The notes beneath the pieces are model-generated. The model made no database searches, was not told where the DNA came from, and saw only the letters and a program-made list of their open reading frames with translations. A stretch of DNA of 64,000 nt from Nitrospirota bacterium. Its GTDB lineage: Bacteria; Nitrospirota; UBA9217. Position numbers and translations under genes: made by a program. This document shows, piece after piece, positions 44,826 through 64,000 of this stretch (position 1 is the first letter of the stretch; the number at the start of each line of letters is the position of its first letter). The stretch spans positions 1,023,022 to 1,087,021 of the forward strand of contig CAWBNQ010000003.1 of NCBI GenBank assembly GCA_963790205.1, read 5' to 3'.

Positions 44826-45937
44826 TGGGACTTTACAGAAGAGGCCAAGCCTGGTGGATGTGTTTCACGTATCAGGGTAAGCAGCACCGAGTACCGACCG
44901 AGAGCAACGACAAGAAGGTGGCAGAAAAGATTTACCGCAAGGTGATGACTGAGATAGCGGAAGGGAAGTGGTTCGAGAGATCTGCTCATGCGGACAAGAC
45001 CCTGGCAGAGTTGTTGGATAAGTATCTCAAGGAACATTCAACACCTAACAAAGCTGCCAGCACGGTCAAGAACGATACTGCCATGGTCGAGGAGATGAAG
45101 GATTTTTTCGGCAACGTGCTTTTGCAGGACGTGACGCCGAGCCTCATCTCAGCGTACAAGGCCAAGTGCAGGGAAAAAGAGCTTGCTCCTGCCACGATCA
45201 ATCACCGGCGCACGTTGTTGCGCCATGCGTTCAATCTCGCCATCAAGGAATGGCAGTGGTGCCAGAAGAACCCTGTCGAACGGGTCTCGCGGGACAAGGT
45301 CAAGAACGAGCGGGACAGGTGGCTTACCCTTGAGGAAGAAACGAAGTTATTGGAGTGCTGTATCCTTCATCCCACGCGCAAAGATAACACGGTCGAGGTA
45401 TCGTACCGGCTTCAGGAGATCGTGCTCTTTGCTCTGAACACGGGTATGCGTCAGGATGAGATTCTTTCTCTCGAATGGCCGAACGCGGACCTGTTCAGAA
45501 AGACGATACTTGTGGTGAAGTCGAAGAACGGCGAAAAGCGGACCATCCCCATGAACCAGAAGGTCTTTGAACTGCTCAAGGCGAAGGCGAGAGCGAATCA
45601 GAATGGCAACAAGATCGTCTTTGCAAGCGAGACGGGAACGAAGATCCTGAGAAGAAACCTCATGAGGGCGTTTTACAATGCGACGGCCCGCGCAAAGATC
45701 GCCGATTTCCGTTTTCACGATCTTCGGCACACCTTCGCCACGAGACTGGCGCAGGCGGGGATAGACCTCTACCAGATTTCAAAGCTGCTCGGGCACAAGG
45801 ACATCAAGATGACACAGCGTTACGCGCATCATTGTCCCGACAGTTTGCGGAGCGGAGTAGAGGTCCTGGATAAACGGGCTGTTGCCCAAAGGACTTCCCG
45901 CGAACGATCAAGCGCCTTGATGCGTAAAGAGGTCTAA
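44825..45937 (+). CDS. Tyrosine integrase; native C-terminus displaced by IS1182
   Basis: TGMRQDE, KSKNG, HDLRHTFA, LLGH..MTQRYAH (R-K-H-R-H-Y intact). Confidence 0.93.
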   Translation: MGLYRRGQAWWMCFTYQGKQHRVPTESNDKKVAEKIYRKVMTEIAEGKWFERSAHADKTLAELLDKYLKEHSTPNKAASTVKNDTAMVEEMKDFFGNVLLQDVTPSLISAYKAKCREKELAPATINHRRTLLRHAFNLAIKEWQWCQKNPVERVSRDKVKNERDRWLTLEEETKLLECCILHPTRKDNTVEVSYRLQEIVLFALNTGMRQDEILSLEWPNADLFRKTILVVKSKNGEKRTIPMNQKVFELLKAKARANQNGNKIVFASETGTKILRRNLMRAFYNATARAKIADFRFHDLRHTFATRLAQAGIDLYQISKLLGHKDIKMTQRYAHHCPDSLRSGVEVLDKRAVAQRTSRERSSALMRKEV

Positions 45938-47475
45938 GCTAATGACGGGCAATATCGGTTCTGTCTCAAGGGAATATGCAAAATGAGCGATCCGAAAGCC
46001 TTTGCCACTGTTCTTTGAACAACGAGCAGCCGTACCGCAGCTGCTTTCTTCGGCTTGGAAGCATGCGCTATTAGCACTTGCATGTTCTGGATGGCACAGG
46101 TCATATATTCCTGGACCCGCATTCGCCAAAGGCCTCGCCAGCGTGCTTGATCGAAGCCGTATCGGGTGCCCCTGGCAAAGGATCGCTCCATCAGGTGTTG
46201 TCTGGTTTTGATGTCGTACCGTGCATTGGCTGATCGACTGATTGCACGCATGCGCTCCAGAACATTCTGCCGGAGATGACGCTTGATCGTTCGGCCGGAC
46301 TTGTTTTTCGTGCATTGCTCTCTAAGCTGGCACGCTGCGCAGACTTTCCTGGGCGCTGCGTAATCCCGGCTTTGTCTGGCTATATGCAGCGACTTCGGCT
46401 TGAGCTGAGTTCCTGCCGGGCACATATAGGAGTCGGTGGCAGGATCATAGGAAAATCTATCTTCCATAAAGATGTCGGTTTTCGCTATGCGATTGATCGC
46501 CACGTCTCGTAAATCCGGGATATGCGCCTTTATGCCCTTGTCATGGCAGGCAAGGAAGTTGTCGATCGTTCCGTACTTACTGTCCGCAACAACCGTTTCG
46601 GCCTCGACTTCCGTTGTTGCGTGGTGTTGCTCAAGCAGCGAAAGCATCAGATGGGCTTCGTTCACATCGCCGGGCGCTACGTCGGTTGCAGTGATGATTT
46701 CTTTTTTACCGTCAACGGCCCGATGCACTTGGTAGGAAAGTTTGGATTTCCCCCGGTTCACCAGGGCCGCGTCCGGGTCGGTGGTGGAGATATAGCGGTT
46801 GTTCTTTTTTTCGTAGGTCCTGGAAGGATCAGTGCTTTCGGTGCGTTCTTCCAAGCGGGCTTCCAGCTTTTTATAATTTTTGTGCAACTGATGTTTCAGG
46901 TTCCGGGTATCGAGAACCGAACTGTTGGAGGCATTTGCATCCACCAGACTGGAGTCGACGAAGATCTTGCGGCCGTCAATAAGACCGGCTTCCGCGCACT
47001 GCAGAACAATACGTTCGAAGAACCTTTGAAAAACATCGAGGCCCCATTTTTTGCGGGCCTTGGATAGCACGCTATGGTTGGGAATTTCAGAATCAAGGTC
47101 ATACCCGAGAAACCAGAGCCAATCCATACGCTCTGGCAGGGTGTCCATCAGCTCCCGCTCCGAGCGGACATTATAAAAGATCAGGAGTAGCATCAGTTTC
47201 AGGATAATTGGTGGTGGCACTGAAACGTTGCCGTTGTTGCCGTACAAGTCCTTGACTTCGTCATAGGCGAAGTTGAAATCGATCAGCGTATTGACTTTTC
47301 TCAAAGGATGGTTCTCACGAACCCGTTTTTCTATATTGATGCCGATATAGAACAAGCTGCTTTGAGGCGGTTGCTGCAATCCCATCATGGCTATTGGCTC
47401 CTGATGTCGTGATTGACGTCGCAGCAATATAGCATTACTGAGTGGCTTTCTCAATATCATTTGGGCAACAGCCCG
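45875..47475 (-). mobile_element. IS1182-family insertion sequence
   Basis: Perfect 16-bp IRs CGGGCTGTTGCCCAAA (45875-45890 and 47460-47475); 4-bp TAAA duplication at 45871-45874 and 47476-47479. Confidence 0.92.
45934..47388 (-). CDS. IS1182 transposase
   Basis: HPLR, SERELM, PNHSVLS, VDSS, STTDPDA, ADSKY, CPAG, CAACQLREQC, ERSFA. Confidence 0.9.
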   Translation of the reverse strand: MMGLQQPPQSSLFYIGINIEKRVRENHPLRKVNTLIDFNFAYDEVKDLYGNNGNVSVPPPIILKLMLLLIFYNVRSERELMDTLPERMDWLWFLGYDLDSEIPNHSVLSKARKKWGLDVFQRFFERIVLQCAEAGLIDGRKIFVDSSLVDANASNSSVLDTRNLKHQLHKNYKKLEARLEERTESTDPSRTYEKKNNRYISTTDPDAALVNRGKSKLSYQVHRAVDGKKEIITATDVAPGDVNEAHLMLSLLEQHHATTEVEAETVVADSKYGTIDNFLACHDKGIKAHIPDLRDVAINRIAKTDIFMEDRFSYDPATDSYMCPAGTQLKPKSLHIARQSRDYAAPRKVCAACQLREQCTKNKSGRTIKRHLRQNVLERMRAISRSANARYDIKTRQHLMERSFARGTRYGFDQARWRGLWRMRVQEYMTCAIQNMQVLIAHASKPKKAAAVRLLVVQRTVAKAFGSLILHIPLRQNRYCPSLA

Positions 47476-47507
47476 TAAAGTTATCACATTTTTATCACAG
47501 TCCAATG

Positions 47508-48381: not shown

Positions 48382-49656
48382 TCAGTGCACTGAACAGGAA
48401 ATACAGGGGTCATAGGACCGGACGAGCATCTGGGCCATCAGTTCGATCTCCTGGTCCGTGCCGCCCTTCGCGGCGTACTCCGTCACCAGTTTCTGCAGGT
48501 CGTGCTGGATGTTGGCATGGTTCTGGCTCGTGGGGATCACGCAGTCGCAGTTGGTGATCCTGCCGTCCTCATCGAACTCGTAGCAGTGATACAGTATCCC
48601 CCGCGGCACTTCGACGGCGCCCACCCCCCTGCCTTTTTTCGGCGCCACGGCCTGGCGCGGTCCCTCCCAGGTCATGCCCGCAAGCTCGTCGATCAGATCC
48701 ATGGACTCCATGACCACGTGCAGGCATTCCACGAGCTGGGCGATGTTGTTCAGGTAGGGGTTGTGATTGACCGGCTTCAAGCCGAAGCTCGCGGAGAGCT
48801 CCCGCGCGGCGGGGCGCAGGAACTTGAAATTGTTATTGACCCGGGCCAGCGCTCCCACGGCAAAGGATCCGCGCGAAAGACGGCTCCATTTCGACGTGGA
48901 GTGCGGAACCGTATATTCGTTCGTCATGTCCCGGTATTCGTGCTCTTTCCTCGTGACCCCGTCGCTTGACGCCAGATCGCCTCCGATGAAGGGATACGCG
49001 CCGTCTCCCTTGAGCGATACGAACTCGGTCTCCCGGGAAAAACCGGGGAGGGCAAAGGTCCGGAGCAGCTCTGCCGTGCTCAGGAGGTCGTCAATCGCAT
49101 CCTTCAGCCTGGTCTTGAAACGCAGGAGCTCCTTTTTCTCCGGCAGCATGGTGAAGCCGCCGACAACGGTCCTCGTGGGATGCATGCGGCGGCCGCCGAC
49201 GCTGTCGCAGACGTCGTTGGCGAGCTGTTTTATCCGCATCGCGCGCTGCACCACGTGGGGATGGGAGTCGATCAACGGAAAGACGCTGCCGACGTTCAGA
49301 AAATCCGGGACCGCGAGAAAGTAAAGATGGAGCACGTGGCTCTGGAGCGTTTCCATGTGCTTCAGGAGCAGCCGCAGCGAGCGGGTCTGTTCGGTCGGCA
49401 CGATCCCGAAGGCGTTCTCGACCGCACGGATGGAGGCCAGGGTATGGCCGATGGAGCAGATGCCGCAGATCCGTCCGCTGATCCAGGGGGCGTTCTCCCA
49501 CTTTTTCCCGACAAGCATGGCCTCGAAGAACCGCGGGGTCTCGACGACCTCCCAGCGCGCTTCTTCGAGCTTGCCGTCCCGGATCCTGATCTTGATGTTG
49601 CCGTGGCCCTCGACCCGGGTGATGTGATGGATGTCTATGGTGCGGGTTGATTTCAT
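48382..49656 (-). CDS. Group 3b (sulfhydrogenase-type) NiFe hydrogenase large subunit
   Basis: TRVEGHG, L1 RICGICSIGH, EVPRG, L2 RSYDPCISCSVH at the very C-terminus. Confidence 0.92.
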   Translation of the reverse strand: MKSTRTIDIHHITRVEGHGNIKIRIRDGKLEEARWEVVETPRFFEAMLVGKKWENAPWISGRICGICSIGHTLASIRAVENAFGIVPTEQTRSLRLLLKHMETLQSHVLHLYFLAVPDFLNVGSVFPLIDSHPHVVQRAMRIKQLANDVCDSVGGRRMHPTRTVVGGFTMLPEKKELLRFKTRLKDAIDDLLSTAELLRTFALPGFSRETEFVSLKGDGAYPFIGGDLASSDGVTRKEHEYRDMTNEYTVPHSTSKWSRLSRGSFAVGALARVNNNFKFLRPAARELSASFGLKPVNHNPYLNNIAQLVECLHVVMESMDLIDELAGMTWEGPRQAVAPKKGRGVGAVEVPRGILYHCYEFDEDGRITNCDCVIPTSQNHANIQHDLQKLVTEYAAKGGTDQEIELMAQMLVRSYDPCISCSVH

Positions 49657-49670
49657 ACAAAGTCCTTTTT

Positions 49671-49760
49671 TCTCGCAAAGCCCGCAAAGGTCGCAAAGTT
49701 TTAAATCTTGAATTTTAATCTTGGGATTCTTTTCTTTGCGTTCTTTGCGCCTTGGCGAGA
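49671..49760. repeat. Palindromic intergenic repeat built from CGCAAAG units
   Basis: TCTCGCAAAGCCCGCAAAGGTCGCAAAG ... CTTTGCGTTCTTTGCGCCTTGGCGAGA. Confidence 0.7.
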
Positions 49761-49769
49761 GACAGGTAT

Positions 49770-50585
49770 TTATTTTTTTGTCTTGAGGTCCTTCCGCAGC
49801 GTCTCTGCATCCTTCGCGAACCCGCCGAAGCATTCCAGCCGGTCGAGCAGGGTCTCGTCGGAAAAGCCCCGCTCCTTCATGATCGCCTCCATCTGCCCGA
49901 TGTTGGCGTCTTCCGCCGGCCCGCGGCAGCCCCAGCACCCGGACCTGCTGTTGGGACACCAGGAGTCGCACCCGCCCCGCGTGATCGGCCCCAGGCAGGG
50001 CTCGCCGAGGTCGAAGAGACAGATGTTCTCGTTCGCCTTGCATTCCATGCAGACCGGGTACTTGGGAAGGACAACGGACTTGCCGATGATGAGATTGGTG
50101 ACGATCTTTTCCACTTCTTCTTTTTTCACAGGGCAGCCGTAGATCTTCAGATCAACAGGAACAAAGGCATCGATCGGCCTTGCCGTGTCCTCCGTGTCTA
50201 TGGCGCTCTCGCCGTAAACCCGCTTTTTTACCCACGCCGGATCGTTGAACCGGTTCTTCAGCTGGTTCACGCCGCCGAAACAGGCGCAGGAACCGAACGC
50301 CACAAGCACCTTCGCGTTCTTCCGGATCATCTTCAGGCGTTCGAGCTCGTCGGCCCGGGTCACGCTGCCCTCTACAAAGGCGATATCACAGGTATCGGCC
50401 TTTTCGGTCATGACCTCGCGGAAGGCCACGACGTTCACGAGAGAGAGAAAGTCCAGGAGCGAGGCCTCGTTGTTCAGGAGCTGGAGCTGACACCCCTCGC
50501 AGGAGGACAGCTCGAAGAAGGCGACGTTCGGCCGGGCGATCGGGACGCCGAGGTACGTGCGAATATTATTGGGAGATGATTGCAT
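49770..50585 (-). CDS. Group 3b NiFe hydrogenase small (delta) subunit
   Basis: SSCEGCQ, VEGS, GSCACFGG, GCP, VCMEC..CLGPITRGGC..CP..CWGCRG. Confidence 0.9.
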   Translation of the reverse strand: MQSSPNNIRTYLGVPIARPNVAFFELSSCEGCQLQLLNNEASLLDFLSLVNVVAFREVMTEKADTCDIAFVEGSVTRADELERLKMIRKNAKVLVAFGSCACFGGVNQLKNRFNDPAWVKKRVYGESAIDTEDTARPIDAFVPVDLKIYGCPVKKEEVEKIVTNLIIGKSVVLPKYPVCMECKANENICLFDLGEPCLGPITRGGCDSWCPNSRSGCWGCRGPAEDANIGQMEAIMKERGFSDETLLDRLECFGGFAKDAETLRKDLKTKK

Positions 50586-50640
50586 TATGACACCCATTCC
50601 TCAAAAAAGCCGCGAAGCCACATCTGAGAAAAAGTCTTCT

Positions 50641-50711
50641 ATCCGCAGATTTCGCAGATAAAGACAAAACCAGAATTCTAATCTTAAAATCTGCGTCGAT
50701 CTGCGTAATCT
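50641..50711. repeat. Palindromic CGCAGAT/ATCTGCG repeat, cut by the IS110 end
   Basis: ATCCGCAGATTTCGCAGAT ... ATCTGCGTCGATCTGCGTAATCT; the closing GCGGAT expected from the left arm is missing. Confidence 0.75.
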
Positions 50712-50759
50712 TCTATGTTAAAAAGCAAGTCTTTCTTTTGGCATAAACGCATCTCTTTT

Positions 50760-50960
50760 ATTAAGGAGCGATTTATAGCGAACGCAATCTTCAAACCCAA
50801 TCTTCTATGAGCAGACAGTCTTCGTTGATGAAGAAAACGCTGCATTGCCTTGATTAATTATGAAGGCGTGGGTTCGTAGTCTGTGGAAGCACAGACGGCA
50901 TCTTTCGATCCGCTGTAGATTACGCAAGACGATACCCACGGTGAAACACGGGTTTAAGAT
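50760..50960 (-). ncRNA. Putative IS110 bridge/seek RNA (boundaries approximate)
   Basis: Stem-internal loop-GAAA hairpin at 50867-50940 whose loop strands match the insertion target; a second segment (50802-50809) matches the element end. Confidence 0.7.
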
Positions 50961-50980
50961 CGGCTATAAATATCGGTTTT

Positions 50981-51412
50981 TTATTGAACAACCGCCGTAG
51001 TGTATTCTTGTTGGTTCTTTAAAACGTACCGGACGCGGTTTAACAGCTTCCGGGCGATCCGAACGATAGCTTTGGTCTTTGTCATGTGTTTGCACAGCTC
51101 ATTGAACGCCATCATTAGGGCAGGGTCTTTTCGCACCGCCGTCCAAGCGCTTTCGATCAAGACGAAGCGAAGCTGGGCGTTCCGCCTGCCGGTCATGCCG
51201 GTTTTAAGGTCCTTTTCCCCGCTGGAATCGGTATCGGGGATAAGGCCAACGTAGCTGCAGAGTTTGTCGAGCGTCTTGAAACGATTGATGTCATACAGCT
51301 CCGTCAAGAGCATCATCGCGGTCAAGGTACTGATTCCCGGCACGGTCTTAAGTATCCGGACATTGTTCCGATAGTCGTCCGAATTGGCCAGGGCGCGGAT
51401 CGCCCGGTTTAC
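50981..51412 (-). CDS. IS110 transposase/recombinase C-terminal fragment
   Basis: LKTVPGI..ELYDINRF..SYVGLIP..SSG..LIESAW..ARKLL; the RuvC-like N-terminal half is absent. Confidence 0.88.
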   Translation of the reverse strand, partial: VNRAIRALANSDDYRNNVRILKTVPGISTLTAMMLLTELYDINRFKTLDKLCSYVGLIPDTDSSGEKDLKTGMTGRRNAQLRFVLIESAWTAVRKDPALMMAFNELCKHMTKTKAIVRIARKLLNRVRYVLKNQQEYTTAVVQ

Positions 51413-51637
51413 GGGTCTTTCTCGAGAATGCCTGATTGAACTCAACCTACTCTCGCCCACTCAGGGGGTCCCCCGGGCCTCTCTGCCGCCCCAATAGTTA
51501 TGTTAAGCATCTATACCCGCCTAGCCAAGACTTCTGTCGGTGTTAAATATGATGGCTTTGATTTTGTTGGTGGTGTGAGGTTGCGCCAAGAGCATTGTTC
51601 TCTGGAGAGCCAGGTAGTGGTCGGCAAGGGCCAACCC

Positions 51638-51792
51638 ATGGCGGAGACGCAAATTAGATTTACCAAAGCCAATAATGGCGTTATCACCGACAGCGTCACT
51701 GGCCTTGATTGGTATGTCGGCTCCAACCAAGACAACAACTGGCATCAGGCCAAGGACTGGACGGAGAATCTCACCGTGGCCGGGGGTGGAAT
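51638..51792 (+). pseudogene. DUF1566-domain fragment
   Basis: RF..NNGVITDSVTGLDW..WHQAKDW..L..GGG, breaking off before the expected WRxP. Confidence 0.55.
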
Positions 51793-52177
51793 GCTGGTAA
51801 GCGCCCCTGGCCCCTACCGGCTCCCAGCGATGCCTTGCAAGAACCTCTGTAATATCGCCGTGCTCGTTGAAGTCATCTCCGGGCCGGCGGGCTTCTATTT
51901 GGCAGGCGGTAGCCAGCACCTTCAACCTTTGCCGGGTCTACATATTCATTGAGCGCTCGTGCCGCATTGACGAGAAGTTGGCGGTCTTCCGCGGTGTAGT
52001 TGGGATCTTGAGAAAGTCCCCCTGACGGAGTTCATAACCTGGGGTGGGATGAGCCAGGAATTGGCCACCTTCCCCCCGGGTCTCGATCAGGGTCAACGGC
52101 TCGGCGGTCCCCGGAGGAGCGTTTGACAAAGCCTGCAACAGTGCTTACCCCATTGTTTAACTAAGAGGGAAACAACC

Positions 52178-53383
52178 ATGACCAGTTATCTCATTGTGGG
52201 CAACGGCGTGGCCGGCAACGCCGCGGCTGAAACCATCCGGAAGCACGATAAAGCCGGGGAGATCCGGATTTTCTCCCAGGAACGGTATCCCTTTTATTAT
52301 ATTCCGGGGCTGCCGGAATATCTGGCCGGAGAGCGCCCCCTTAACCGGCTGATCATCCACGATGAGCAGTGGTATCGGGACCAGGGCATCGAACTGCATT
52401 TAAGCACGGAAATCAGTAGTATTGACGCCGCCAACCAGGTCGCCGCCACCCGGCAAGGCCAGACCTACCCTTACGACAGGCTGCTCCTGGCCACCGGCGG
52501 CAACTCCTTCGTGCCGCCCATCAAGGGGGCCGATAACGCCGGGGTCTTTACCCTGCGGACCATCGCCGATGCCGACGCCATCCGGGAGCAGGCGGCCAAA
52601 TCTAAAAAATTGGCCCTCATCGGCGGCGGCCTGTTGGGCCTGGAGGCCGGCAACGGCTTGCGGAAATTGGGGCTTAAGGTGACGGTCATCGAGTTTTTCC
52701 CCCGGCTGCTGCCGCGCCAGATGGATGTGGCCGGCGCCGCCCTGCTGCAGCGGCAAATGGAGGACATGGGTTTCAAGTTCTATTTGGGGGCGACCACCCG
52801 GGAGATCGTGCCGCAAAATGGCGGCCTCTCGGTCCGCCTGGAGAGCGGCGAGGACCTGGAAGCGGATATGATCCTGATCTCCGCCGGCACCCGTCCCGAT
52901 CTGACCCTGGCCCGGGCCTTGGGGTTGGAGATCGACAAAGGGATCAAGGTGGACGACACCATGAAGACCGGGCTGGACGAGATCTATGCCGCCGGCGACC
53001 TGATCGAGCATCGGGGCCGCTACTATGGACTGTGGTCCGCCGCCATGGAGCAGGGCAAGGTGGCCGGGGCGGCCATGGCCGGCCAGCCCGCCAGGTATGA
53101 AGGCACGGTGCCCTCCAACATCTTGAAGGTGGTGGGCATCGACCTGCTCTCCGCCGGTGAGATCGACGTGGAAGGCCGCCTCGAAGCCATCGTCCACCAG
53201 GATGAGGCCAGGAAGACCTATAGAAAGCTGGTGTTAAAGGATAACGTCCTGATCGGGGCCATCCTGCTGGGAGACCTGCACGGCAGCGCCGAAATCCTGG
53301 GCGCCATCAAAAAAAGCCTCGACCTGACCCCGTTCAAAGCGGACCTGGCAGCGGAGAGCTTCGATTTCGCCAGATTGAGATAA
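52178..53383 (+). CDS. FAD-dependent NAD(P)H oxidoreductase (NADH:rubredoxin / NirB N-terminal-like)
   Basis: IVGNGVAG, LLLATG, FTLRT, IGGGLLGLE, IYAAGD, YRKL. Confidence 0.88.
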   Translation: MTSYLIVGNGVAGNAAAETIRKHDKAGEIRIFSQERYPFYYIPGLPEYLAGERPLNRLIIHDEQWYRDQGIELHLSTEISSIDAANQVAATRQGQTYPYDRLLLATGGNSFVPPIKGADNAGVFTLRTIADADAIREQAAKSKKLALIGGGLLGLEAGNGLRKLGLKVTVIEFFPRLLPRQMDVAGAALLQRQMEDMGFKFYLGATTREIVPQNGGLSVRLESGEDLEADMILISAGTRPDLTLARALGLEIDKGIKVDDTMKTGLDEIYAAGDLIEHRGRYYGLWSAAMEQGKVAGAAMAGQPARYEGTVPSNILKVVGIDLLSAGEIDVEGRLEAIVHQDEARKTYRKLVLKDNVLIGAILLGDLHGSAEILGAIKKSLDLTPFKADLAAESFDFARLR

Positions 53384-53480
53384 CAACACTGGTGCAAGTG
53401 AGGGACCTGACTATGGGGATCTTATCAAGAACTTTTCAGAATTTTTGATAATTATGGATTTTGGCAAGCTATCTTCCATT

Positions 53481-53730
53481 CTAACAACTATCCCGGGGCT
53501 TCACGGAAAGGGCGACCGCAAGCTCCATCCGTTCCTCAAGAGTCTCAGTAAACCCCTTGGCAATCTGGCTGGTGATCGCCCCCGGACGGCAGACTGCTAC
53601 CGGATGCAGGGCCTTTATACGGACGGAACCCCTGGCCACGCCCCCCTCTGCCGTAAGGCGCAGGGGCGCTGGCACACCCCATCAACATGAGGGCCAGCAA
53701 CCACAAACAGAAAATCGTTCGACCTTTCAT
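53481..53730 (-). CDS. Possible small lipoprotein, frameshifted
   Basis: MKGRTIFCLWLLALMLMG-C lipobox-like signal; the downstream frame is uncertain. Confidence 0.35.
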
Positions 53731-53804
53731 AAATGAGGTCCTTTCCAGGCCTGGGCAACCTCCGAGGCAGTGCCTGGCGGCAAGAAAGACTGCATAAAAT
53801 CCTC

Positions 53805-54269
53805 TTAACCATTAGTCCCCAATGAGCGGACAGCTCTCACGAAGGCCTTGGCGCCCTCCCTGGCAGGGTATGTCCTTAAGACCGTCCCTCCATAAGAGGG
53901 CTGATAGTTGAATGGGAGCAAGACCGTGGGGTTGGATGACCAATAGAGATCAAAACGGGCATAGGTATCACGGGAACGCCTGGGCATCAGCAATTTGATG
54001 ACTGTGGCGGTCTCCAGTTCGTCAGGTTTGGGCAGACGCCAATCAGCATGGCTACCCAGCCGTAGATTCTGGCAGTACTTCTGCGCCTCCTCGAAGGTGA
54101 CCTCTTTGCCGTTATCGCCCTTCTGCCACATGATTTTCAGAAGCGTGTCCGTAACCGTCCCATCCCCGTTATCCACAAACCTGGCCGCCGCTGACGCAGC
54201 CAGAGGTGACTGGCCAAGAAGCGGTAGGACGAAGGCTATGATGAGCAAGAATTGCCATTTATTTCGCAT
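53805..54269 (-). CDS. Secreted DUF1566-domain protein
   Basis: Signal peptide, RFVDNGDGTVTD..MWQK..AQKYC..DWRLP..EL..YWSS..VRAVR. Confidence 0.88.
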   Translation of the reverse strand: MRNKWQFLLIIAFVLPLLGQSPLAASAAARFVDNGDGTVTDTLLKIMWQKGDNGKEVTFEEAQKYCQNLRLGSHADWRLPKPDELETATVIKLLMPRRSRDTYARFDLYWSSNPTVLLPFNYQPSYGGTVLRTYPAREGAKAFVRAVRSLGTNG

Positions 54270-54367
54270 CCTTATATCTCCCTTTTTTTCGGTCTAACGA
54301 GCTTCGAACCCTTACGGCCCACGAAACCTACACCTTTCCAGATCCTCGTGCCCCTCCGGGCAGAAGC

Positions 54368-55220
54368 TTAGCGATAAGCCAGGCTATGGCGTAAAGCACA
54401 CCGAGCAGGACGACATCCGTCGGACCGACGGGCAAATCGCATTGATAGGCGACCCAGAAACCGAGGAACGCCACCACGCCGCCGACCAAAGAGGCCAGCG
54501 TCGTGAACTGGCGTATATTGCGCGGCGAACAGGTGCGCCGTCAGGGCGGGAATCAGCAAAAATCCGAAGGCGATCAGCGGACCGACACTGAGCACTGCCA
54601 TGGAGACGGTCAGGCCGATCAGCAAATAGAGCAGTACATCCCAAAAAACTACCTTCTTGCGAAGGGTAATGGCCATCTCGCGATCGAATGAGACCAGGAG
54701 CAACTCCTTGTGAAAGAGTCCCAGCGCGGCCAGGACGACCAGGAGCGTTGCTGCCGTCAGCACCAGATCGAAATTGGAGACGGTGATGACCTCGCCTTTC
54801 AGCAGGTCGAGCCAGCCAATCTCGCCGTAAGGGTTTTTTGCCAGCAACAAGATACTCAACTGAGGCAGCCACGACGTACGCCGTGCCGAGTCGACCTTCG
54901 GGCTGACCGCGCCCGCGTCGTTCCAGAAATGCCAATACCAGGATGGCGGTCAGCGTGAAGGTCATCGAGCCGGCAAAGGCAAGGCCGTGCGCGCTGTGGG
55001 CGCCATGATCATGCAGATGAAACCCGAACCACAAGGGCAAGGAGAGGGCGATCGCCACGCCCGTCGAGGAGATCTGCGGCAGTGCTACGCCCATGAACAC
55101 CAACCGGCGCATCACGAGAAATACCCCGACGAGCGGGCAGGCGAAGCCGACGAGCACGCTGGTATAAACCGAGTTGCGCAGGAGAAAATCGGGCGAGAGG
55201 ATCTGACCTAACGTTTCCAT
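54368..55220 (-). CDS. ZnuB/TroCD-type metal ABC permease (frameshifted near 54860 and 54520)
   Basis: GVFLVMRRLVFMGVAL, KELLLVSFDREMA, GPLIAFGFLLIPA across frames. Confidence 0.8.
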
Positions 55221-55221
55221 G

Positions 55222-55940
55222 TCAACCGATCCCCATTTCAAAAATCTCCGCCATCCGTTCGAGGCTAAGCAGTTCGTCCGCGGTGCCGTGGTGCATCTTG
55301 CCCTGGTGAAACCAGAGGACTTGCTGGGCATGATGGCGCACCACCGCAAAGTCGTGCGTGGCTAGCAGGACCGTGATCTGCTTTTCCTGGCGGATTTGCG
55401 AAATGAATTCGAGGACCGCACGTGTCGCGGTGATGTCCACGCCGGCGGTCGGTTCGTCGAGTACCAGGACGTCAGGGCGCGTTGACCAGGGCGCGGGCGA
55501 TCAGCACGCGTTGTTTCTGACCACCGGAGAGTTTGGCAAACCGCTGGTGAGCAAACTCCTCAGCACCCACCACGCCGCAAACATTCGCGGGCGAAGGCAC
55601 GCTCGCTTGACGGGACCAAACGCCCCGGGCGGACGCGTCCATACGCGCCCATCAGAGCCACGTCGAACCCCGTCAGCAGATATATCGGATCAAACTGATT
55701 GGATTGAGGGACGTAACCGAACACGAGCGGTGCGCCCGTCGATGCGGCGGTGTCGATGCGGCCTGCGACTGGCGGCAGCAGTCCAAGCAGCGTCTTGAGC
55801 AGAGTCGATTTGCCCGAACCGTTCGCACCGAGAATGGCGGTGAAGCTGGCGCGGGCAATCGAGAGCGAAATCCCGGACAAGACAGGTTGGCCATTGTAGC
55901 CGATGCTCAGGTTGTCCAGGGTGATGAGGGCTTCATTCAT
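55222..55940 (-). CDS. ZnuC-type metal ABC ATPase (frameshifted)
   Basis: [33 protein letters not shown] across frames. Confidence 0.82.
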
Positions 55941-56007
55941 ATCATATGTCTGTTATGCGGGCCCGCCCGCCGGAACCACCGGACAGGCGGACCCGCTCTT
56001 CAGGGGT

Positions 56008-56941
56008 TTATTTCTTCGCCTGGGCGGCAGCTACCATGGTGTGAATGATGTAGTCCATCATCTTAATGTAAGTTTCCGTGTCCGGTACGCCGCCCGGCAT
56101 GATCGGCAGCTTTACCAGGGTGGCGCCGGTCTGTGCCGCGATGAGACTCGGCACCTTTTCAGGAAACTGCGGTTCGCGCACCACGATGGCAGCGTGCTCG
56201 GCCCTCATCGTGGCGATCAGTTGCTCAATGTGACGTGCGGTCGGGTCGATCCCCGGCCTCAGTTCGATGGTGCCGAGGTAGTTCATGCCGAAGCGCGCCG
56301 CGAAGTAGGGCCAATGCTCGTGATAGGATACGAACTTCACCCCCTTGAGCGGTTGGGCTTCCTGTTTCCACTCGGCAATCTTGGCATTGAGCTTGGCGAG
56401 ATAAGCATCCCGGTTGCGCGTGAATTCTGCTTGATACTGCGGGGCGAAGGCTACCAGGGCGTTGTAGATGTTGGCGATCGCGGTCTTCGCCAACACCGGA
56501 TCGAGCATGTAGTGCGGGTTGCCGTAAGCATGAACGTCGCCCGCGGTGTGATCGGTTGACTTGGGTACATCGCGGGGGATGATGCCCTCCGAACAGTCCA
56601 CGTAGCCGGGCTTGCCTGGCTGGATGCGGGGATTCTTGCTCGCTTCTATCAAGGCCGGCAGGAAGGCGTGCTCGCAACCCAACCCCACCTCGATCAACAG
56701 GTCCGCCCGGTTCAGCAGCGGCACGAAGCTCGGTTTCATCGGCACCCCGTGCGTGTCTTCGACGCCCGTGGCCAGGCTCTGAACCTCGACCTGGTCTCCG
56801 CCGATGTTGCGCGCCAGGTCCGCCAGGTCAGTCAGGGTGGTGACGACGTGGATCTTGGCCGCTTGAGCCGGGTATCGCCCCGAAACCCAAGATCCCGATA
56901 AACAGGATGATCCAGAACAAATGGAACAGTCTCAATTTCAT
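56008..56941 (-). CDS. ZnuA/TroA-type metal-binding periplasmic protein (frameshift near 56860)
   Basis: VVTTLTDLADL..DTHG, GDVHAYGNPHY, SYHEHWPYF, ELRPGIDPT..H. Confidence 0.85.
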
Positions 56942-56963
56942 GTTCGATTCCTCTCTTCCAGGG

Positions 56964-58505
56964 TTAGCGTTCTTGCCACCCATGGGCGTGTGACCCTATG
57001 ATCCAGGCCCATTGCAGGTACACCGCATTATCGGCGCGCAGGGTGCTAACCACGGGTGGGGCTGATCCATCCAGACCTTGAAATACCCCCTGCCCGGTGG
57101 GTGAGGTGTGGGTGAATTGCAGGCGCAGCTCATTCCAGTGGCTGAGGTACCAGGTGATATAGGGAGAGTACGCATAGGTATGCTGGTGTTTATCCTGGGC
57201 GTTCTGCGCAAACTGAAACTCAAATCCGGCGGTCCACTCCCGATGGAACCGGTAAGCGAGATACGAGTACAGGCCATAGGAGGGGACATTGATGTCGGGT
57301 AATAACTGGGTACCGTCCGGTGCGGTAACGCTATAGCGGTTGTCGGCTGTAAAGCACCTCCGTGCCCCAGGTGAGGCTTTTGAACTGATTGTTACGCAGC
57401 GGCTGGTAGCGCACCATAAAATCTGCCCCCAGCAGACGGCGTTGGCGTTCCGTGAGCGTGTTGCCGTCGGGTTGCAGAAAGGCGCCGCCACGATCTGTGG
57501 CGTTCGGATTGAATAACCATGAAAAGCCAGGTTCGATGGCGATATCAGGTGTCAGGTCAAAATACGTGGAGGCGCGGCCCCAAAAGTTAAACGCGGTGAA
57601 TTTACGCTTATCTTGGAAATCGCCGAAATTATTTGGTTGACCGCCGAACGAATCACCCACGCCCGCGGTCAGACTCACGTAATGCGGAAAGCGGCAACAG
57701 CCAGTTGATCTGGACCCCGTCGGTCCGCGATTCACCGCCGATGTATTGATCGAGCGCCAGCGGCCGCCACACGAAGGGCAGTTCATGATCGTGGATGTAG
57801 GCCAACCGGCCAAACTCGCCGAAGAACCGTCCCCCCTTGAGCGTCAGGTTCCAGGGCAACGAGGTCGTGACAATGGCCGCCTCTTCCACCCCCACGGTGG
57901 CTTCGCCGGTCACCGGGTCGGCAGAGGCATTGAGCACCGCATAACCGCGGGCAAACGGATCAACCGATCCGGCAATATTCAGTTCCATCGAACGCTGGAA
58001 GAAATCCCACCCGCCGGGCCGGGGGCTGGTTGCCGGGGCGAGGACATTCGTATACTTCGCCGAACGGCTGCGATAAGCGCCGATCGACTCCCCCACGAAC
58101 CCGATGGAAGGATTGTACTTGCTCAGAAACTCCTGCTTCTGCGCTTCGGCTACCTGGCCCACCTGCTCCTTCAACTCCTCCACCTGTTCCTGTAACTCTC
58201 CGGTTGCCGCCGCCTGAGCCGCCGTGGGCAGCCGCGGGTTGAGGAGGCTTGACTTCTGCCTTGGCCGTTTCGGCTTTGACCGGCCCCTTGGCTGCAGGGG
58301 CCGCGGCGGTAGCTTTTTGCACCGCGTCGAGGCGGCGTTCCAGTTCCTCAATCTTCTTATTTTTTGCGGAAACCTCCTGATGCAGTTCTTTCATTTCTTT
58401 CCTAAGCTCTTCAATGGCCGCGGCCTGATCTTGGGCCAGGGCAGTATTCACCGTGCCGAAGCCTATGGCCAGAGCCAACCAAACGGCTATAGCACGTCGA
58501 GTCAT
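56964..58505 (-). CDS. Outer-membrane beta-barrel associated with metal uptake (several frameshifts)
   Basis: Signal peptide plus coiled coil; NPSIG, ELNIAGSVDPF, EEAA, GRFFGEFGRL..H.HELPF; C-terminal YLQW..IGSHAH. Confidence 0.72.
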
Positions 58506-58608
58506 GATTCTCCCCCCAAATGACAATTCTCCCAAGTCACACCTCACCCTTTCGGTTCGGAGCAACTTAAGTACCGAGAAAAAACTCAGAGATTGGTTGA
58601 TTGTCGAT

Positions 58609-59046
58609 TTAGAGGGAAACTGGCGGGGCGCGCGGTCCTAAGACCAGGATATCCGGGTTGGCAACTACTGAGGTGATGGCATTATTGCAGAACCGTTGAA
58701 CCGGTAGGGAAAGGGCCGGGGCCAGGGAAAGGGTTGTGACCGCGAAATACCGGCAACTTAAAGCCGCCTGGCAGATGGGACAGGTGGCGGGATCATGATG
58801 ATGATGGTCCGGCTCGTCAGGTTCAGGGGCACTGAGTTGCAGCCCGACTTGTTTGCCAAGGACCGAGGCAAGGGGAGGATGTAGTCCTTCCAGCGTGTGG
58901 AGGTGGCATTGATGCGCCAGAGGCACAAAGAAGAGAGCCAGCAGAAGGAACAGGCAGAACAGAGGAGACGAAGCGGGTTTGACGTCACGCCGGAAAGCAT
59001 CGGACTTCGTCTGTGCTCCACTATGCTGGGTTCGGGGCCTGCCCAT
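58609..59046 (-). CDS. DUF2946-like leader peptide ending in RAPP
   Basis: Hydrophobic helix plus HQCHLH, HHHHDPATCPIC, C-terminal GPRAPPVSL*; first gene of the metal-uptake operon. Confidence 0.78.
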   Translation of the reverse strand: MGRPRTQHSGAQTKSDAFRRDVKPASSPLFCLFLLLALFFVPLAHQCHLHTLEGLHPPLASVLGKQVGLQLSAPEPDEPDHHHHDPATCPICQAALSCRYFAVTTLSLAPALSLPVQRFCNNAITSVVANPDILVLGPRAPPVSL

Positions 59047-59064
59047 CAGGAGTTCCTCGCAGGG

Positions 59065-59094
59065 AGTATAGACTTTAATGCAACTGAGTTGCAA
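59065..59094 (-). promoter_or_regulatory. Promoter overlapped by a Zur-type box
   Basis: Minus strand TTGCAA-18 bp-TATACT; palindrome TTGCAAC-TCA-GTTGCAT (59078-59094) fits the ATGCAAC-N3-GTTGCAT Zur motif described for Deltaproteobacteria. Confidence 0.75.
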
Positions 59095-59344
59095 GGGTCT
59101 TATTAGTTCCGGTTCTGCTGTAGGCGAAGATTAGGAAAAATTCTCTCGTCATATCTGTATGGCAAAAATCGTGGAGAAAATTTTTGGGGGGAAAAATCTG
59201 ATCAGATTTTGATCAGGCAAAGCTTGTTAACTGCTATAAATCAGCGCTTGGTGAAAAAACATTAACTTTGCAGCGCAAAGTTAATTACTTTTTTGGTGTA
59301 AGGCGGAGCATTGGCCCGCCTTCTTTTATATAAAGGGTTGGAAG

Positions 59345-59577
59345 AGGGTGTGGGGGAGGGCAGGGATCGTTGATCCCTGGCCCTCCCCCACGAACTTAGT
59401 CGCAGGGTTTGCCTGCGGCTGCACAGGCGGGACGCCTGCGCTACCAATGGAAAAAGGTGCGCAGTGCGCACCCTACATAAGACACAGGCGAGACGCCTGT
59501 GCCAACGGATGGGGAGCAGCACAGGCTGGAAAGCCTGTGCTACCTGACGAAAAAGGTGGGTAGTGCCCACCCTACAG
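59345..59577. repeat. Cluster of REP-like hairpins downstream of hisB
   Basis: Three CACAGGC..GCCTG(C/T)GC units alternating with two GGTG(C/G)G..CACCCTAC units, plus a GGGGAGGG..CCCTCCCC hairpin. Confidence 0.75.
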
Positions 59578-60156
59578 CACGCCTTTGGTGGAGGGGACGC
59601 CCTGGGCCCGGGGTTCGGGTTGGGTGGCGGCGTCCAGGGCCCGGCCGGCGGCCTTGAAGATGGCCTCCAGGATGTGGTGGGTGTTCTCGCCGTAGGGCAC
59701 GGTGATGTGCAGGGTGATGCCGCCGTGGACGCTCACGGCCCGCCAGAACTCCTTCAGCAGTTGGGGGTCCAGGCCGGCGGGGCCGGGGGGCAGGGTGACC
59801 TCGAGGTGGAGAAAGGGGCGGTTGCTCAGGTCCAGGGTGACCTGGGCCAGGGCCTCGTCCATGGGCACCCGGGCCGAGCCGAAGCGCCGCACCCCGGGGC
59901 GCTGCTGCAGGGCCTCCCGGATGGCGTGGCCCAGGCAGATGCCGATGTCCTCCACGGTGTGGTGCTGGTCCACCTGCAGGTCGCCGTTGGCCTTGACCTT
60001 CAGGTCGAAGTAGCCGTGGGCCGCAAAGAGGTGCAGCATGTGGTCCAGGAAGGGGATGCCGGTCTGGATGTCGGCCTCGCCCCGGCCGTCCAGCTCCAGC
60101 TCCAACTCCACCTCGGTTTCTTTGGTGCGGCGGCTCACCTTGCCGATGGGTGACAT
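59572..60156 (-). CDS. hisB: Imidazoleglycerol-phosphate dehydratase
   Basis: RRTKET, TGIPFLDHML, DQHHTVED, PMDEAL, NTHHILEAIFKA, PSTKG. Confidence 0.97.
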   Translation of the reverse strand: MSPIGKVSRRTKETEVELELELDGRGEADIQTGIPFLDHMLHLFAAHGYFDLKVKANGDLQVDQHHTVEDIGICLGHAIREALQQRPGVRRFGSARVPMDEALAQVTLDLSNRPFLHLEVTLPPGPAGLDPQLLKEFWRAVSVHGGITLHITVPYGENTHHILEAIFKAAGRALDAATQPEPRAQGVPSTKGVL

Positions 60157-60259
60157 GGCAGGGTTCTCCTTGGGTTAAAAAAGTTTCGAGTTTCGAGTTT
60201 AAGAAAATCCGTGATTAAACGCGGGCAGGGTGAGGCGGCGTGTCAGCCAATGACGCCAC

Positions 60260-60410
60260 CCCTCACCCCAACCCTCTCCCCTCATAGGGGAGAGGGGGTT
60301 TTTGCTGCAACGAGCTTCAGACTGCGCCGCCCCCGGCTAAACATTCATGGCCGTGGGCTACCCCCAAAATGAAAGTCGCATTTAGGGCGGTTCGAGAACC
60401 GCCCCTACGG
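60260..60410. repeat. REP-like hairpins upstream of hisB
   Basis: CCCTCACCCCAACCCTCTCCC..GGGAGAGGG and TAGGGCGGTTCGAGAACCGCCCCTAC. Confidence 0.6.
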
Positions 60411-60639
60411 GGACTTTCCGGAAGCCTGCGGCTACCAGGACACTGTTACCCGCCATAATAAAACTTTTCCACGGCAACGGCAAATGATAATATGGGAAGG
60501 CAAGTTGCCGGCCAAGCACGGCAGGGAGATGGCAGGCATGATGCGTGCCGGCGCAGTGATGGCCCGTCACGGCGAATTCCAGATAAAGGCCTGCGGCTAC
60601 AGAAGTCATATTGCAGGCATTGGGGCACGAGGTAAGGGA

Positions 60640-61379
60640 ATGAGCGACAAGCGGCAGAAGTATCGGCTATTAATGGTGAACGGTTTGATTCTGGGGCTGG
60701 CGGTGCTGGGCGTCGCCCTATTTCCAGCCCGGCGCGGCGCTGGCGGCCGACGCGGCGCCCAAGGCGGTGCTCACGGAAACCAGGTTTGATTTCGGGACAG
60801 CCTTCGAAGACCAGCAATTGATCCACAGCTTTGTGATCCAAAATAGCGGCAACGCCCCTTTGAAGATTATCGACGTGGACCCGGATTGCGCCTGCACCGT
60901 GGCGAGCTACGAGAAGAGCATCCCCGCCAGCGGCCGGGGGAAGTCATCCTGCGAATTAAACCCTATACGGTGCTGCGGCAGTTTCCAAGGAGGCCAAGGT
61001 CCGGACCAATGATCCGGAGCACTCCGAATTCAACCTGGTGCTTACCGGGAAGGCGATGCCGTTCATTGAAATCGCCCCCAGCCATATCGTGCGGCCGGGC
61101 ACGCCGGGGGATAACCTGGAGGGCGAGGTGCGGTTCACCTCCCACCTGCCGGGGGCGTTTGAGATTACCAGTTATCACACCAATATCCCGGACAAGATGA
61201 ACGTCAACCTGAAGGCGGTGGAGGCAGGCCGGGTGTATCTTCTGGAAGTGAAGAACAAGAGCCAGAATTCGGGGCCCTATGCCGGCCTCATTGAGTTGAA
61301 CACCACCTCCAAGGAGCGGCCCCGGCTGATCGTGCGGGTATTCGGCGAAATCTACCTGCCCTCCGCCGGCAATCGGTAA
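60640..61379 (+). CDS. DUF1573-domain secreted protein (several frameshifts)
   Basis: Signal-like N-terminus, FDFG..HSFVIQNSGNAPLKI..DCACTVA..IP..G, continuing in other frames to 61379. Confidence 0.7.
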
Positions 61380-62016
61380 AGCAGGTGGTGGGGCGGGCGT
61401 CCCCGGCCGCCGATTTCATCAGCATCGGCTGGATAGCCTGGGCTACCAGCATTCAATAGTTTGAGAAGCAATTCGTTCAGGAGGTGGATGGCAAAGGTTC
61501 TGACCGCCAGGTGTAAAAGCAGTTCCGCTTCCCGGGGCGGCGGCGGCCCCGGGTTGACCGGGGAGGTAAGGCTGATCCGGTCCTGGAAGGCGAACAGGGT
61601 TTCGTCCCCCCGGCTGATGGTGCCGGAGATGGTGAGATAGGCGGTGATATTGCCGGCGATGAAGCGGAAGGAGGCGCCCCGGATTTCCACAGTCTGCACT
61701 GTGCCGCGCGATACCGTGGCGCTTTTGGGGTCGATCTTAAGCCGTTGGCCGTTGGCGCGGGTCAGTTACCCTGCAGTTGGGCCTGAAAGCCTTCCGGGTC
61801 CACCCCCTGGGCGGCCTGGATGGTGAAGGGCTCCAGGGCGTAAACGGTCCGGGCCGCGGGGAAGTCGGGGGCCGCGGTAGACCGAGGTGAGATAGCGGCC
61901 GGGTTGCAAGAGCGATATCGGCCGGCAACCGCCGCGCCACTTGGGGGCGCGGCCCAAATCAACATTAGAGTCAGGGTAGCGATGAGGGCCAAGGAGCGGC
62001 GTTGGTTAATCCACAT
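61352..62016 (-). CDS. Hypothetical secreted protein (frameshifted; boundaries uncertain)
   Basis: Signal-like MWINQRRSLALIATLTLMLIWA; coding-like segments in several minus frames. Confidence 0.35.
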
Positions 62017-62234
62017 GGCCAACTGATTACCACAATTGATCGTCATCTGCCAAACGATTTAAGCATTTTCAGGCTATCAACCGGTAAGAGGCGCCCCGGC
62101 GTCGGATACCTGCGGCATTATGCGCATATAGTGCAGAGGGAAGGGGCCTAGATGGGTACCTGGGAGAAACGACTATTGGGGGGGCGCCTGGAGATTTTAG
62201 CGGTTCAGCCTGAGCTTGCATCTGCCGGGGGCCA

Positions 62235-63225
62235 ATGGTAACCTTCCGGCAAATCGCCATTTGGGCGGTATGCCTGCTGGCCCTGTTATTTTTTGGCAGC
62301 CTGGGCTTTGTCTGGTTGGAGGGCTGGAACTTTTTCGACGCCCTGTATATGACGGTGACCACCCTGTCCACTGTGGGCTATGGGGAAGTTCACCCGCTCT
62401 CCCCCCTCGGCAAGATCTATAACATGGGACTGATCCTGGCGGGCATGGGGGTCCTGGCCTATATCATCACTTCCATGGCCCGGGTGGTGGTGGAAGGGGA
62501 GATTAAGGCAGCACTGGGGAAGCGCAAATTGCTCAAGCACATTAAAAAGCTCAGCGGCCACTACATCATCTGCGGCTTCGGCCGCATCGGCGAGATCATT
62601 GCCCGGCAGTTGCAGGAGCGGGGCGTGCCCCTGGTGGTGGTGGATAATAAACCCGAGAACCTGGCCCGCCTGGAGCAGTCCGGCTATTACCTGGTCGCCG
62701 GCGACGCCACCCGGGAAGAGGTCTTGCAGGACGCAGGCATTGAGCGGGCCCGGGGCCTGGTGGCAGTGGTCTCCTCGGACGCCGACAACGTTTATATCGT
62801 CTTGACGGCCAGGAGCATCAGCCCCAATCTCCATATCGTGGCCCGGGGCCGAGAGAAGGGGGCCGAAGGAAGCTGTTGCGGGCCGGGGCCGACCGGGTGG
62901 AATCCCCCTACGAGATGGGGGGCCGCAGATGGCTTACGCCATCCTGCGTCCTACCGTGACCACCTTCATCGAACTGGCCACGCAGGAGGGGGTGGACCTG
63001 AGCATGGAGGAGATCGCGGTGGGCCCGGCTCGTCTCTGGCGGGGGTGGCCCTCAAGGACTCCGGCATCCGCCAGAAGCTGGACCTCATCCTGGTGGCCAT
63101 CAAGCGGTCCGGCGGCGAGATGCTCTTCAACCCCACCCTGGAGACCCCCATTCTGGCGGGCGATACGCTGATCGCCCTGGGCCTGCGCGAAAAATCTGGA
63201 GGCGCTGGAAGAGATGGTCGAATAG
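62235..63225 (+). CDS. Potassium channel with TrkA-N/TrkA-C (RCK) domains (frameshifted after about 62860)
   Basis: TLSTVGYGE filter, HYIICGFGRIG, GDAT, DADN, then LKDSGIRQ..VAIKR..FNP..GDTLIALG. Confidence 0.88.
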
Positions 63226-63355
63226 CTGTCAGCCATGAGCGGTCAGCTTTCAGCCCAAGGATTCGTGGGCACGCCATTGATGGTGCGTAGGACGCACCCT
63301 ACACCAGGCCCAGGCTGGAACGCCAGGGCCACCGACTCCGACTGTGGAGGAATCC

Positions 63356-64000
63356 ATGTCTCAAACTATCATCGGCCGTGGGGTAAAGATCACTTATTAT
63401 GGCCATTCGGCCTTTAGATTGACCGGGGCCGGGGTGTCGGTGCTCATCGACCCCTGGCTCAGCAATCCCCTGCTGCAGGATTCCTATAGAACAGGTGGGG
63501 AAGGTGGACCTGATCCTGGTGACTCACGGCCACGGGGATCACGTGGGCGAGACCGTGCCCCTGGCCCAAAAGACCGGGGCCACGGTGGTGGCCATCCACG
63601 AGTTGTCGCAGATCCTGGCCGCCCAAGGCGTCTCCCGGTGGTGGGCATGAACAAGGGTGGCACCGTGACTTTGGCCGGACTCAAAGTCGCCGTCGACCCC
63701 AGGCGGTGCACTCTTCTACCGTGGATGTGGGAGGCAAGATGGCGCCCGCCGGTGAGGCCGGCGGCTACGTGGTGCAGTTCCCCAACGGCTTCACCCTTTA
63801 CCATGCGGCGACACACGCGGTCTTTGGGGACATGGATCTCATCCGGCAGCTCTACCGGCCGGAGCTGGCTTTCCTGCCCATCGGCAGCCACTACGTCATG
63901 AACCCTCACGAGGCGGCCCTGGCCTGCAGGCTTCTTAAGCCCAAGTGGGTCACCCCGATGCACTACGGGCACCTTCCCGGTGCTCACCGGGACCCCGGCG
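63356..64000 (+). CDS. Metallo-beta-lactamase-fold hydrolase (UPF0173-like), frameshifted, 3' end outside the window
   Basis: ITYYGHSAF, LIDPWL..NP, THGHGDH, GMNKGG, LPIG.HYVM, PMHYG across frames. Confidence 0.82.

Follow-up and report, generated by a model that had tools for sequence, protein, structure and literature searches.

How does an insertion sequence come to end inside one arm of an intergenic palindromic repeat, and is its landing site spelled out by an RNA of its own? The window, by which we mean the whole 64,000-nucleotide stretch of DNA that was analysed, carries such an element on its minus strand. We consider it probable, at about 0.85, that this is an IS110-family element with an IS1111-type organisation that is led by RNA guidance into the arms of ATCTGCG repeats. 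The features of the locus are given in Table 1.

Table 1. Features of the element, its predicted RNA and its insertion site (window positions)
Feature	Position	Strand	Remark
Sulfhydrogenase-like [NiFe]-hydrogenase delta-subunit gene	49770..50597	-	Downstream of the insertion; best NCBIfam match HydD, under the curated cut-off
Target palindromic repeat, left part	50641..50711	+	Arm ATCCGCAGATTTCGCAGAT at 50641-50659, then an AT-rich spacer and, at 50689-50711, the opposite arm, built of ATCTGCG units
Left target half TGCGTAAT	50702..50709	+	Same or 1 mismatch at all 7 right junctions
CT core dinucleotide, right junction	50710..50711	+	
Element right end	50712..50731	-	3-bp extension (50712-50714) and subterminal inverted repeat (50715-50731)
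Predicted bridge/seek RNA, ~174 nt	50787..50960	-	Enclosing helix by single-sequence folding only; ends predicted
Right donor guide CAUAGA (50809-50804), core pair AG, handshake AU	50800..50809	-	Handshake matches target positions 6-7
Donor-loop inner hairpin GCAGC ... GUCUGC	50811..50843	-	Helix 3; both-side changes in 7/9 pairs
Left donor guide AAGGC	50847..50851	-	4/5 match to donor AAGGT
Target-binding loop	50867..50940	-	Left and right guides around a GAAA-capped inner hairpin, all closed by the outer stem; helices 1 and 2 covary
Right target guide UCCAC (50887-50883), core pair AG (50882-50881), handshake AC (50880-50879)	50879..50887	-	
Left target guide UGCGUAAU-CU	50917..50926	-	10/10 match to left flank
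Recombinase gene, 3' part	50981..51409	-	Codons 215-356 of 356; IS110-family DEDD; catalytic Ser-Gly motif included
Probable assembly misjoin	51409..51410	.	True continuation on contig C11, which opens with element bases 1-725 followed by the hydrogenase gamma and beta genes

Element copies, ends and the break at 51409

On the minus strand, 50712-51409 makes up the 3' half of an IS110-family element that is 1,420 bp long and has ends of the IS1111 type. We found six identical full 1,420-bp copies in the genome (14 contigs), together with two matching halves: the window half covers element bases 723-1420, and the 5' half (bases 1-725) forms the very start of contig C11. The earlier note had run the element to 51412 and taken its 5' end to be missing; the half ends at 51409, and the 5' end was found on C11. 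Because seven copies are identical, the sequences indicate that the element has recently spread in this genome. Its open reading frame encodes 356 aa and is flanked by about 80 nt of non-coding sequence at the 5' side and 269 nt at the 3' side, the longer non-coding region lying downstream of tnp as in the IS1111 group. The window fragment matched PF02371, and the recombinase scored 210 bits against NCBIfam NF033542 (cut-off 140). The protein combines a DEDD RuvC-like domain with a Tnp domain carrying the catalytic Ser-Gly, as IS110-family recombinases do, and its residues D19, E66, D105, D108 and Ser277-Gly aligned with the catalytic residues of IS621, the roles of which are given in PMC11208158.

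The stretch C1:291850-291880, which precedes the copy at C1:291970 by about 110 bp, holds a repeat arm with roughly the first 12 left-end bases, after which the repeat resumes; this looks like the scar of an earlier insertion that was lost by deletion between short direct repeats. The window also carries an intact DUF772/DDE transposase gene at 45934-47505, present in many near-identical genomic copies, which we take to be IS1182-like.

At the left end of the element, a 7-bp extension (AGACCTT) precedes the inverted repeat ATGATTAAAAAGGCAAGTC, and at the right end a 3-bp extension (AGA) lies outside the inverted repeat ATGTTAAAAAGCAAGTC; the match between the two subterminal repeats is imperfect and includes two 1-base indels. 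Extensions of 7 bp on the left and 3 bp on the right, outside subterminal inverted repeats, follow the rule that PMC11187229 describes for IS1111 elements. The right-end repeat contains the -35 box TTGCTT (50728-50723), and joining of the two ends in silico yielded the predicted circle-junction promoter TTGCTT-17-TATGAT. Among 60 rebuilt junctions (54 from relatives and six from this genome), the -10 box TATG(A/T/C)T was present in all 60, and in 55 it was combined with a TTG.. -35 box at 17-bp spacing. On the RNA strand, no internal promoter was found.

The element half on C11 is flanked by TCTGCGGAT, which supplies the closing GCGGAT before which the repeat arm at 50689-50711 had been reported to be cut. 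Beyond it lie genes that we take, from their translations, to encode gamma- and beta-like hydrogenase subunits. C11 starts exactly with the missing half and overlaps the window half by 3 bases. On the window side, the delta gene is followed by an alpha-subunit gene at 49656-48382 (minus strand), their best NCBIfam matches being HydD and HydA, both under the curated cut-offs. The window copy would separate the gamma gene of a hydrogenase operon from the delta gene; these genes are adjacent in 9/9 relatives' loci, and they abut or overlap in most close relatives. A contig of run X1 matched 50620-51409, from the unique flank on, without differences and continued into the 5' part of the element; this contig is not independent, because X1 may be the source sample. 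X1 cover ends at 51436, and lack of cover was not counted as evidence. The 12.6-kb tail past 51409 is compositionally atypical (4 of 272 windows were equally far), and its ORFs look broken and frameshift-ridden. Therefore, the window copy is most likely a whole seventh copy that was split by an assembly misjoin, with an empty site ending in GCGGAT. We regard it as quite unlikely that the break is a genuine truncated relic of a rearrangement, as could be argued from the deposited contig passing 51409-51410 without N, since the exact half on C11, the conserved gamma/delta neighbourhood, the X1 contig and the unusual tail all speak against it. At the end of contig C3, positions 51410-64000 are probably a foreign sequence, rich in errors, that was joined on, and findings drawn from this tail call for caution.

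Two further palindromic repeats were observed around the hydrogenase genes, one of the CGCAAAG/CTTTGCG type between the delta and alpha genes (49674-49760), and a third type after the gamma gene on C11 (729-838).

Insertion sites and the predicted guide RNA

The sequence TGCGTAATCT at 50702-50711 does adjoin the element, which ends with TCTATG at 50712. All seven insertion sites rebuild one target, TG(C/T/A)GTAAT-CT-G(C/T)G(GA/TG), in arms of the ATCTGCG palindromic repeat, with the CT core counted once, that is, with a short core and no target duplication. When compared with the 14-base site defined by the guide, one of the six intact copies had a perfect match, four had one mismatch and one had two, and the window/C11 site had one mismatch. 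Every copy thus occupies the target with a CT core that the earlier note had predicted, and the insertions at unrelated sites that would have spoken against it did not occur. After removal of the six elements in silico, 12 sites in the genome lay within one mismatch of the 14-mer; five of them are occupied, and all belong to the repeat family, which bears out the proposed multicopy intergenic target. Sites with two mismatches number 24, one of them occupied. A loose pattern gave 89 arm matches in the wider TCTGYG superfamily, some of them by chance. On this reading, the ATCTGCG palindromes would serve as a landing pad for an insertion sequence. The GGGAATC-type heptamer repeats of PMC4692102 were considered and rejected as the target repeat, whose units are 9-10 bases long. 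A literature search combining IS110, repetitive extragenic palindromic and Nitrospira returned only unrelated work.

The predicted RNA comprises a target-binding loop, with an outer stem that pairs 50940-50929 with 50877-50867, and a donor module. This stem, the left guide and UCCACAG (50887-50881) all lie where they had first been placed, and so does CAUAGAAG (50809-50802), which is complementary to the core plus the element end; a left donor guide, suspected within 50810-50866, was identified at 50851-50847. A 10-mer match like that of the left guide is expected by chance anywhere in the 269-nt end with a probability of about 2.5e-4. The 5' guide is complementary to the element-sense strand, so that the top-strand match lies 5' of the bottom-strand match, as in the IS1111 group, and the handshake AC of the target loop matches the left end of the element. 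As sequence comparison shows, the predicted RNA has four guides and handshake pairing and addresses one site-specific target.

A search of 49600-52200 against Rfam gave no match at E <= 1. A nucleotide HMM of the RNA gave seven hits in this genome, all of them element copies, and no orphan copy; the 10 plasmid IS110 loci searched gave no hit, and neither did the 24 loci with less than 45% identity, most of which are from Bacteroidota. Bacteroidota relatives at 35-39% identity (L033-L035 and others of L026-L055) carry a different 3' RNA (GACTACAAAAC...GTAGCTG, ACATAGGAG), and in L033-L035 the first RNA module occurs twice in tandem, possibly giving two target loops.

The covariation alignment of homologous ends that had been suggested (alignment A2, 90 distinct sequences) was folded with RNAalifold, which returned three helices. 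In this two-loop fold, double changes occurred in 19 of 22 pairs (one lone pair left out) and 94.9% of cells were paired, figures that were reached by 0/500 shuffles; slid controls dropped to 32-45%, a difference that is inflated because the structure was derived from the same alignment. The naked window RNA behaved differently in ViennaRNA. Here, the competing GTCTGTG/CACAGAC hairpin at 50879-50896, which buries the guide, was the minimum-energy fold, with a pair probability of 0.83 vs 0.17, and the earlier note had already named this hairpin as a possible real fold. If it were, the RNA would be inactive or switched off. Conservation of both strands allows the inner pairs of this hairpin to form in most relatives. 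However, the energy gap is 1.4 kcal/mol, the hairpin won in 15 of the 90 aligned sequences when folded naked (the inner stem in 64), and its outer two pairs are broken in most sequences; 75% of its cells were paired, against 95% for the two-loop fold, and double changes were found in 3/7 pairs, which 419/500 shuffles matched. As ViennaRNA favours the hairpin, the fold was decided by covariation, which supports the two-loop structure. The seven identical copies, which point to recent mobility, also argue against an inactive state, and we consider the hairpin very unlikely to be the real fold. None of the three outcomes that the earlier note had named as speaking against its reading was thus observed.

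Covariation of guides, flanks and element ends

We examined 148 sequences, namely 63 and 79 loci and the six copies of this genome. Dropped were 24 loci below 45% identity, 22 without the 3' end of the ORF, and L131, where the contig ends early; the 95 relatives that were kept provided a right flank in 86 cases and a left flank in 60. Guides were cut from fixed columns of alignment A2, and element ends were located by the inverted repeat and not by the guide. The relatives are phylogenetically non-independent, and the covariation figures therefore overstate the significance, not the direction, of what follows.

The left target guide matched its own flank at 6.08 of 7 positions vs 3.04 after permutation (core excluded, 49 distinct guides, two registers allowed both ways), and the right target guide at 4.11 of 5 vs 1.44 (core excluded, 37 distinct guides). 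For either guide, 0 of 20,000 permutations reached the observed match. Without the large GTCAT-type group, the values were 5.95 vs 2.82 (n=37) for the left and 4.12 vs 1.46 (n=25) for the right guide. The 95 relatives offer 55 distinct natural left guides; the left match was at most 4/7 in five of 86 relatives, and of these at least one (L148) stayed in the counts despite a mis-parsed end. The pairing between guide and DNA is thus shown by covariation, which strengthens the RNA-guided reading of the earlier note.

We also considered that the recombinase might recognise the repeat as a hairpin or cruciform, the guide match being incidental. All insertions in this genome do lie in repeat arms, and three of six rebuilt empty sites fold at z <= -3. 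Among the relatives, however, only 8 of 47 empty sites fold at this threshold, and nearly all match their own guide; moreover, sibling CTCTGTG repeats in the same genome are unoccupied. The nearest relative, L047, which is 96% identical over 68 residues, differs both in its guide and in the flank that this guide matches. Recognition of a hairpin is therefore hardly credible, and guidance by the RNA is the reading we retain. A related idea, that the whole clade aims at palindromes, found no support, the 8/47 relatives' sites standing against 0/36 controls.

The L047 locus (L047:1501-2000) is itself fragmentary: it keeps the 3' part of the element with an intact RNA, which may be an orphan guide RNA. 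A further relative with a changed guide was present in contigs of run X20 (RNA, small share), contigs that cannot show transcription. L075 aims at the sibling CTCTGTG repeat.

Covariation extended to the donor side. In 85 of 86 relatives the variable bases of the right donor guide were those of the right end, with four states found (AGA 54, AAA 20, AGG 8, AAG 3), and the target-loop handshake equalled the first two left-end bases in 59 of 60, in five states. The first donor-loop handshake base equalled target position 7 in 52 of 86 (0.60 vs 0.35 permuted); for the second base, no covariation was detected in the 86 relatives (0.10 vs 0.14). The left donor guide matched the donor at 3.76 of 5 positions vs 2.82 (21 distinct pairs), and where left ends vary it fitted its own donor better in eight cases and the consensus in five, with two ties. 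This guide is short (4-5 nt) and lacks core pairing, a feature that would suit a seek-only variant in which guidance comes from the target loop, the protein reads the subterminal inverted repeats to recognise the ends, and the donor module could be dispensed with. According to PMC11187229, an 82-nt target-only seekRNA was enough for movement of ISEc11. Against such a variant stand the right donor guide, which shifts together with the right end, and the donor hairpin, which covaries as strongly as the target loop; in addition, a target-loop-only RNA of CazIS110 gave one of two junctions, as reported in 10.1101/2025.10.25.684509. We judge the seek-only variant unlikely, and favour an RNA in which both modules guide.

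All 60 left junctions carried the CT core, as did 69 of the 86 on the right. The other 17 right junctions carry CC (12), TC (2) and TT (2), apart from one mis-parse, and these non-CT cores are mostly written in the left guide of the same element. Donor bases 6-7 were seen at 0 of 86 right junctions. As far as the sequences tell, natural junctions follow the top strand. The asymmetry fits top-strand-dominant integration, as described in 10.1101/2025.10.25.684509, and the bottom strand that is reported in PMC13626964 to be left unligated and mismatched; it fits equally a bottom-strand cut at the same position.

From these patterns we propose the following course of events. By conservation of the joined ends, and by analogy with ISEc11 and IS621, we infer that the element forms a circle whose junction makes the promoter TTGCTT-17-TATGAT, and that the transcript gives a two-module RNA from the 3' non-coding end, which would be bound by the DEDD/Ser recombinase. 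In the target loop, the guides would pair with TGCGTAAT-CT-GTGGA on both strands, and those of the donor module would pair with AAGGT-CT-TCTATG, the joined ends. Strand exchange would then take place just 3' of the CT core, aided by the handshake pairs. Copies would land between genes, since what the guide spells is the end of the ATCTGCG arm, and this arm belongs to an intergenic family of palindromic repeats.

Relation to known RNA-guided elements

Judged by its organisation, the element is a member of the IS1111 group. In common with the IS1111 seekRNA elements ISEc11, ISPa11, ISKpn4 and ISPst6, as described in PMC11187229, it has subterminal inverted repeats with 7-bp and 3-bp extensions, a long non-coding region after tnp, a junction promoter (predicted here), a top-strand match 5' of the bottom-strand match, and close relatives that are naturally reprogrammed. 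In that report, Siddiquee et al. (2024) described natural reprogramming between ISEc11 and ISXne4 and a REP repeat as the target of ISPa11. Unlike in the ISEc11 group, the transposase is slightly longer (356 aa vs 330-350) and only 20.6-20.9% identical to IS4321 and about 27% to ISEc45 and ISSso6, the target is a tandem-unit ATCTGCG palindrome, and a donor module with covarying guides is evident.

The predicted RNA also resembles the bridge RNA of IS621 and ISCro4 (PMC11208160; Hiraizumi et al. 2024, PMC11208158): the target loop precedes the donor loop, an inner hairpin stands between left and right guides, the core is CT, and handshake bases are present; the proteins share the DEDD and Ser site. 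IS621 likewise targets REP elements (PMC11208160). In contrast to IS621 and ISCro4, the RNA lies in the right end rather than the left with its polarity reversed relative to the transposase, the inverted repeats are long, the donor guides lie in a multiloop without a covarying closing stem, and the proteins are weakly similar (E 5e-6 and 8e-7). Right-end bridge RNAs were predicted in most IS1111 elements by Durrant et al. (2024), with donor bases often in a multiloop (PMC11208160). ISPpu9/ssr9 of Pseudomonas putida (PMC12288879) is comparable by its description: this IS110-family element is reported to occupy palindromic repeats in several copies, with a small RNA encoded after its transposase gene.

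Published work already covers IS1111/IS110 elements that an RNA directs to palindromic repeats (PMC11187229, PMC11208160), and the element is a well-supported addition to a known RNA-guided system, not a new one. It nevertheless provides a clean case, readable from sequence, of a predicted RNA-guided recombinase whose clade lies far from those characterised, and a possible start for tool mining. A covarying donor module combined with IS1111-type ends bears on the question, raised by seekRNA vs bridge RNA, of whether the donor loop is needed, and the natural guide/end pairs define exact compensatory mutants.

Among the matches listed, the transposase was at most 34-35% identical to plasmid records. 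A quick tree, built on few references and lacking an IS110-type outgroup, placed it in a 43-row clade of its own (SH-aLRT 92), apart from IS4321 and from ISEc45/ISSso6, with L075 as sister of the element. In the parts of the PMC11208160 supplements that were searched, the motifs of the clade led to one distant protein only, and a closer entry may lie in the remaining parts; the available portions of the 2026 review PMC13604230 and related literature contained nothing on the clade. It is possible, although we lean against it, that the element heads a separate subfamily by protein and RNA sequence, with IS1111-type ends, a four-guide bridge RNA and junctions that always follow the top strand, in which one lineage (the element, L075 and the X20 relative) adapted its guide to different subfamilies of the TCTGYG palindromes. 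That superfamily of repeats would also flank GxxExxY nuclease genes. If so, the element would parasitise a repeat that another mobile system may spread.

Eight PF13366 (GxxExxY-type) matches were found in this genome (L064-L071), and the genes are bracketed by related short inverted tandem words (CGCAAAG, CACAAAG, CGCGGAG; read by eye), which differ at most loci, none being ATCTGCG itself. Among the papers listed on GxxExxY, judged by title, none dealt with repeats. GTCAT/GTCAC-type sites are the target of 33 of 86 relatives (L079, L081, L084, L089, L116, L122, L125 and others), which stand on several branches of the tree. Several of these targets lie in GTCATT...GAATC palindromes, which are presumably REP-like.
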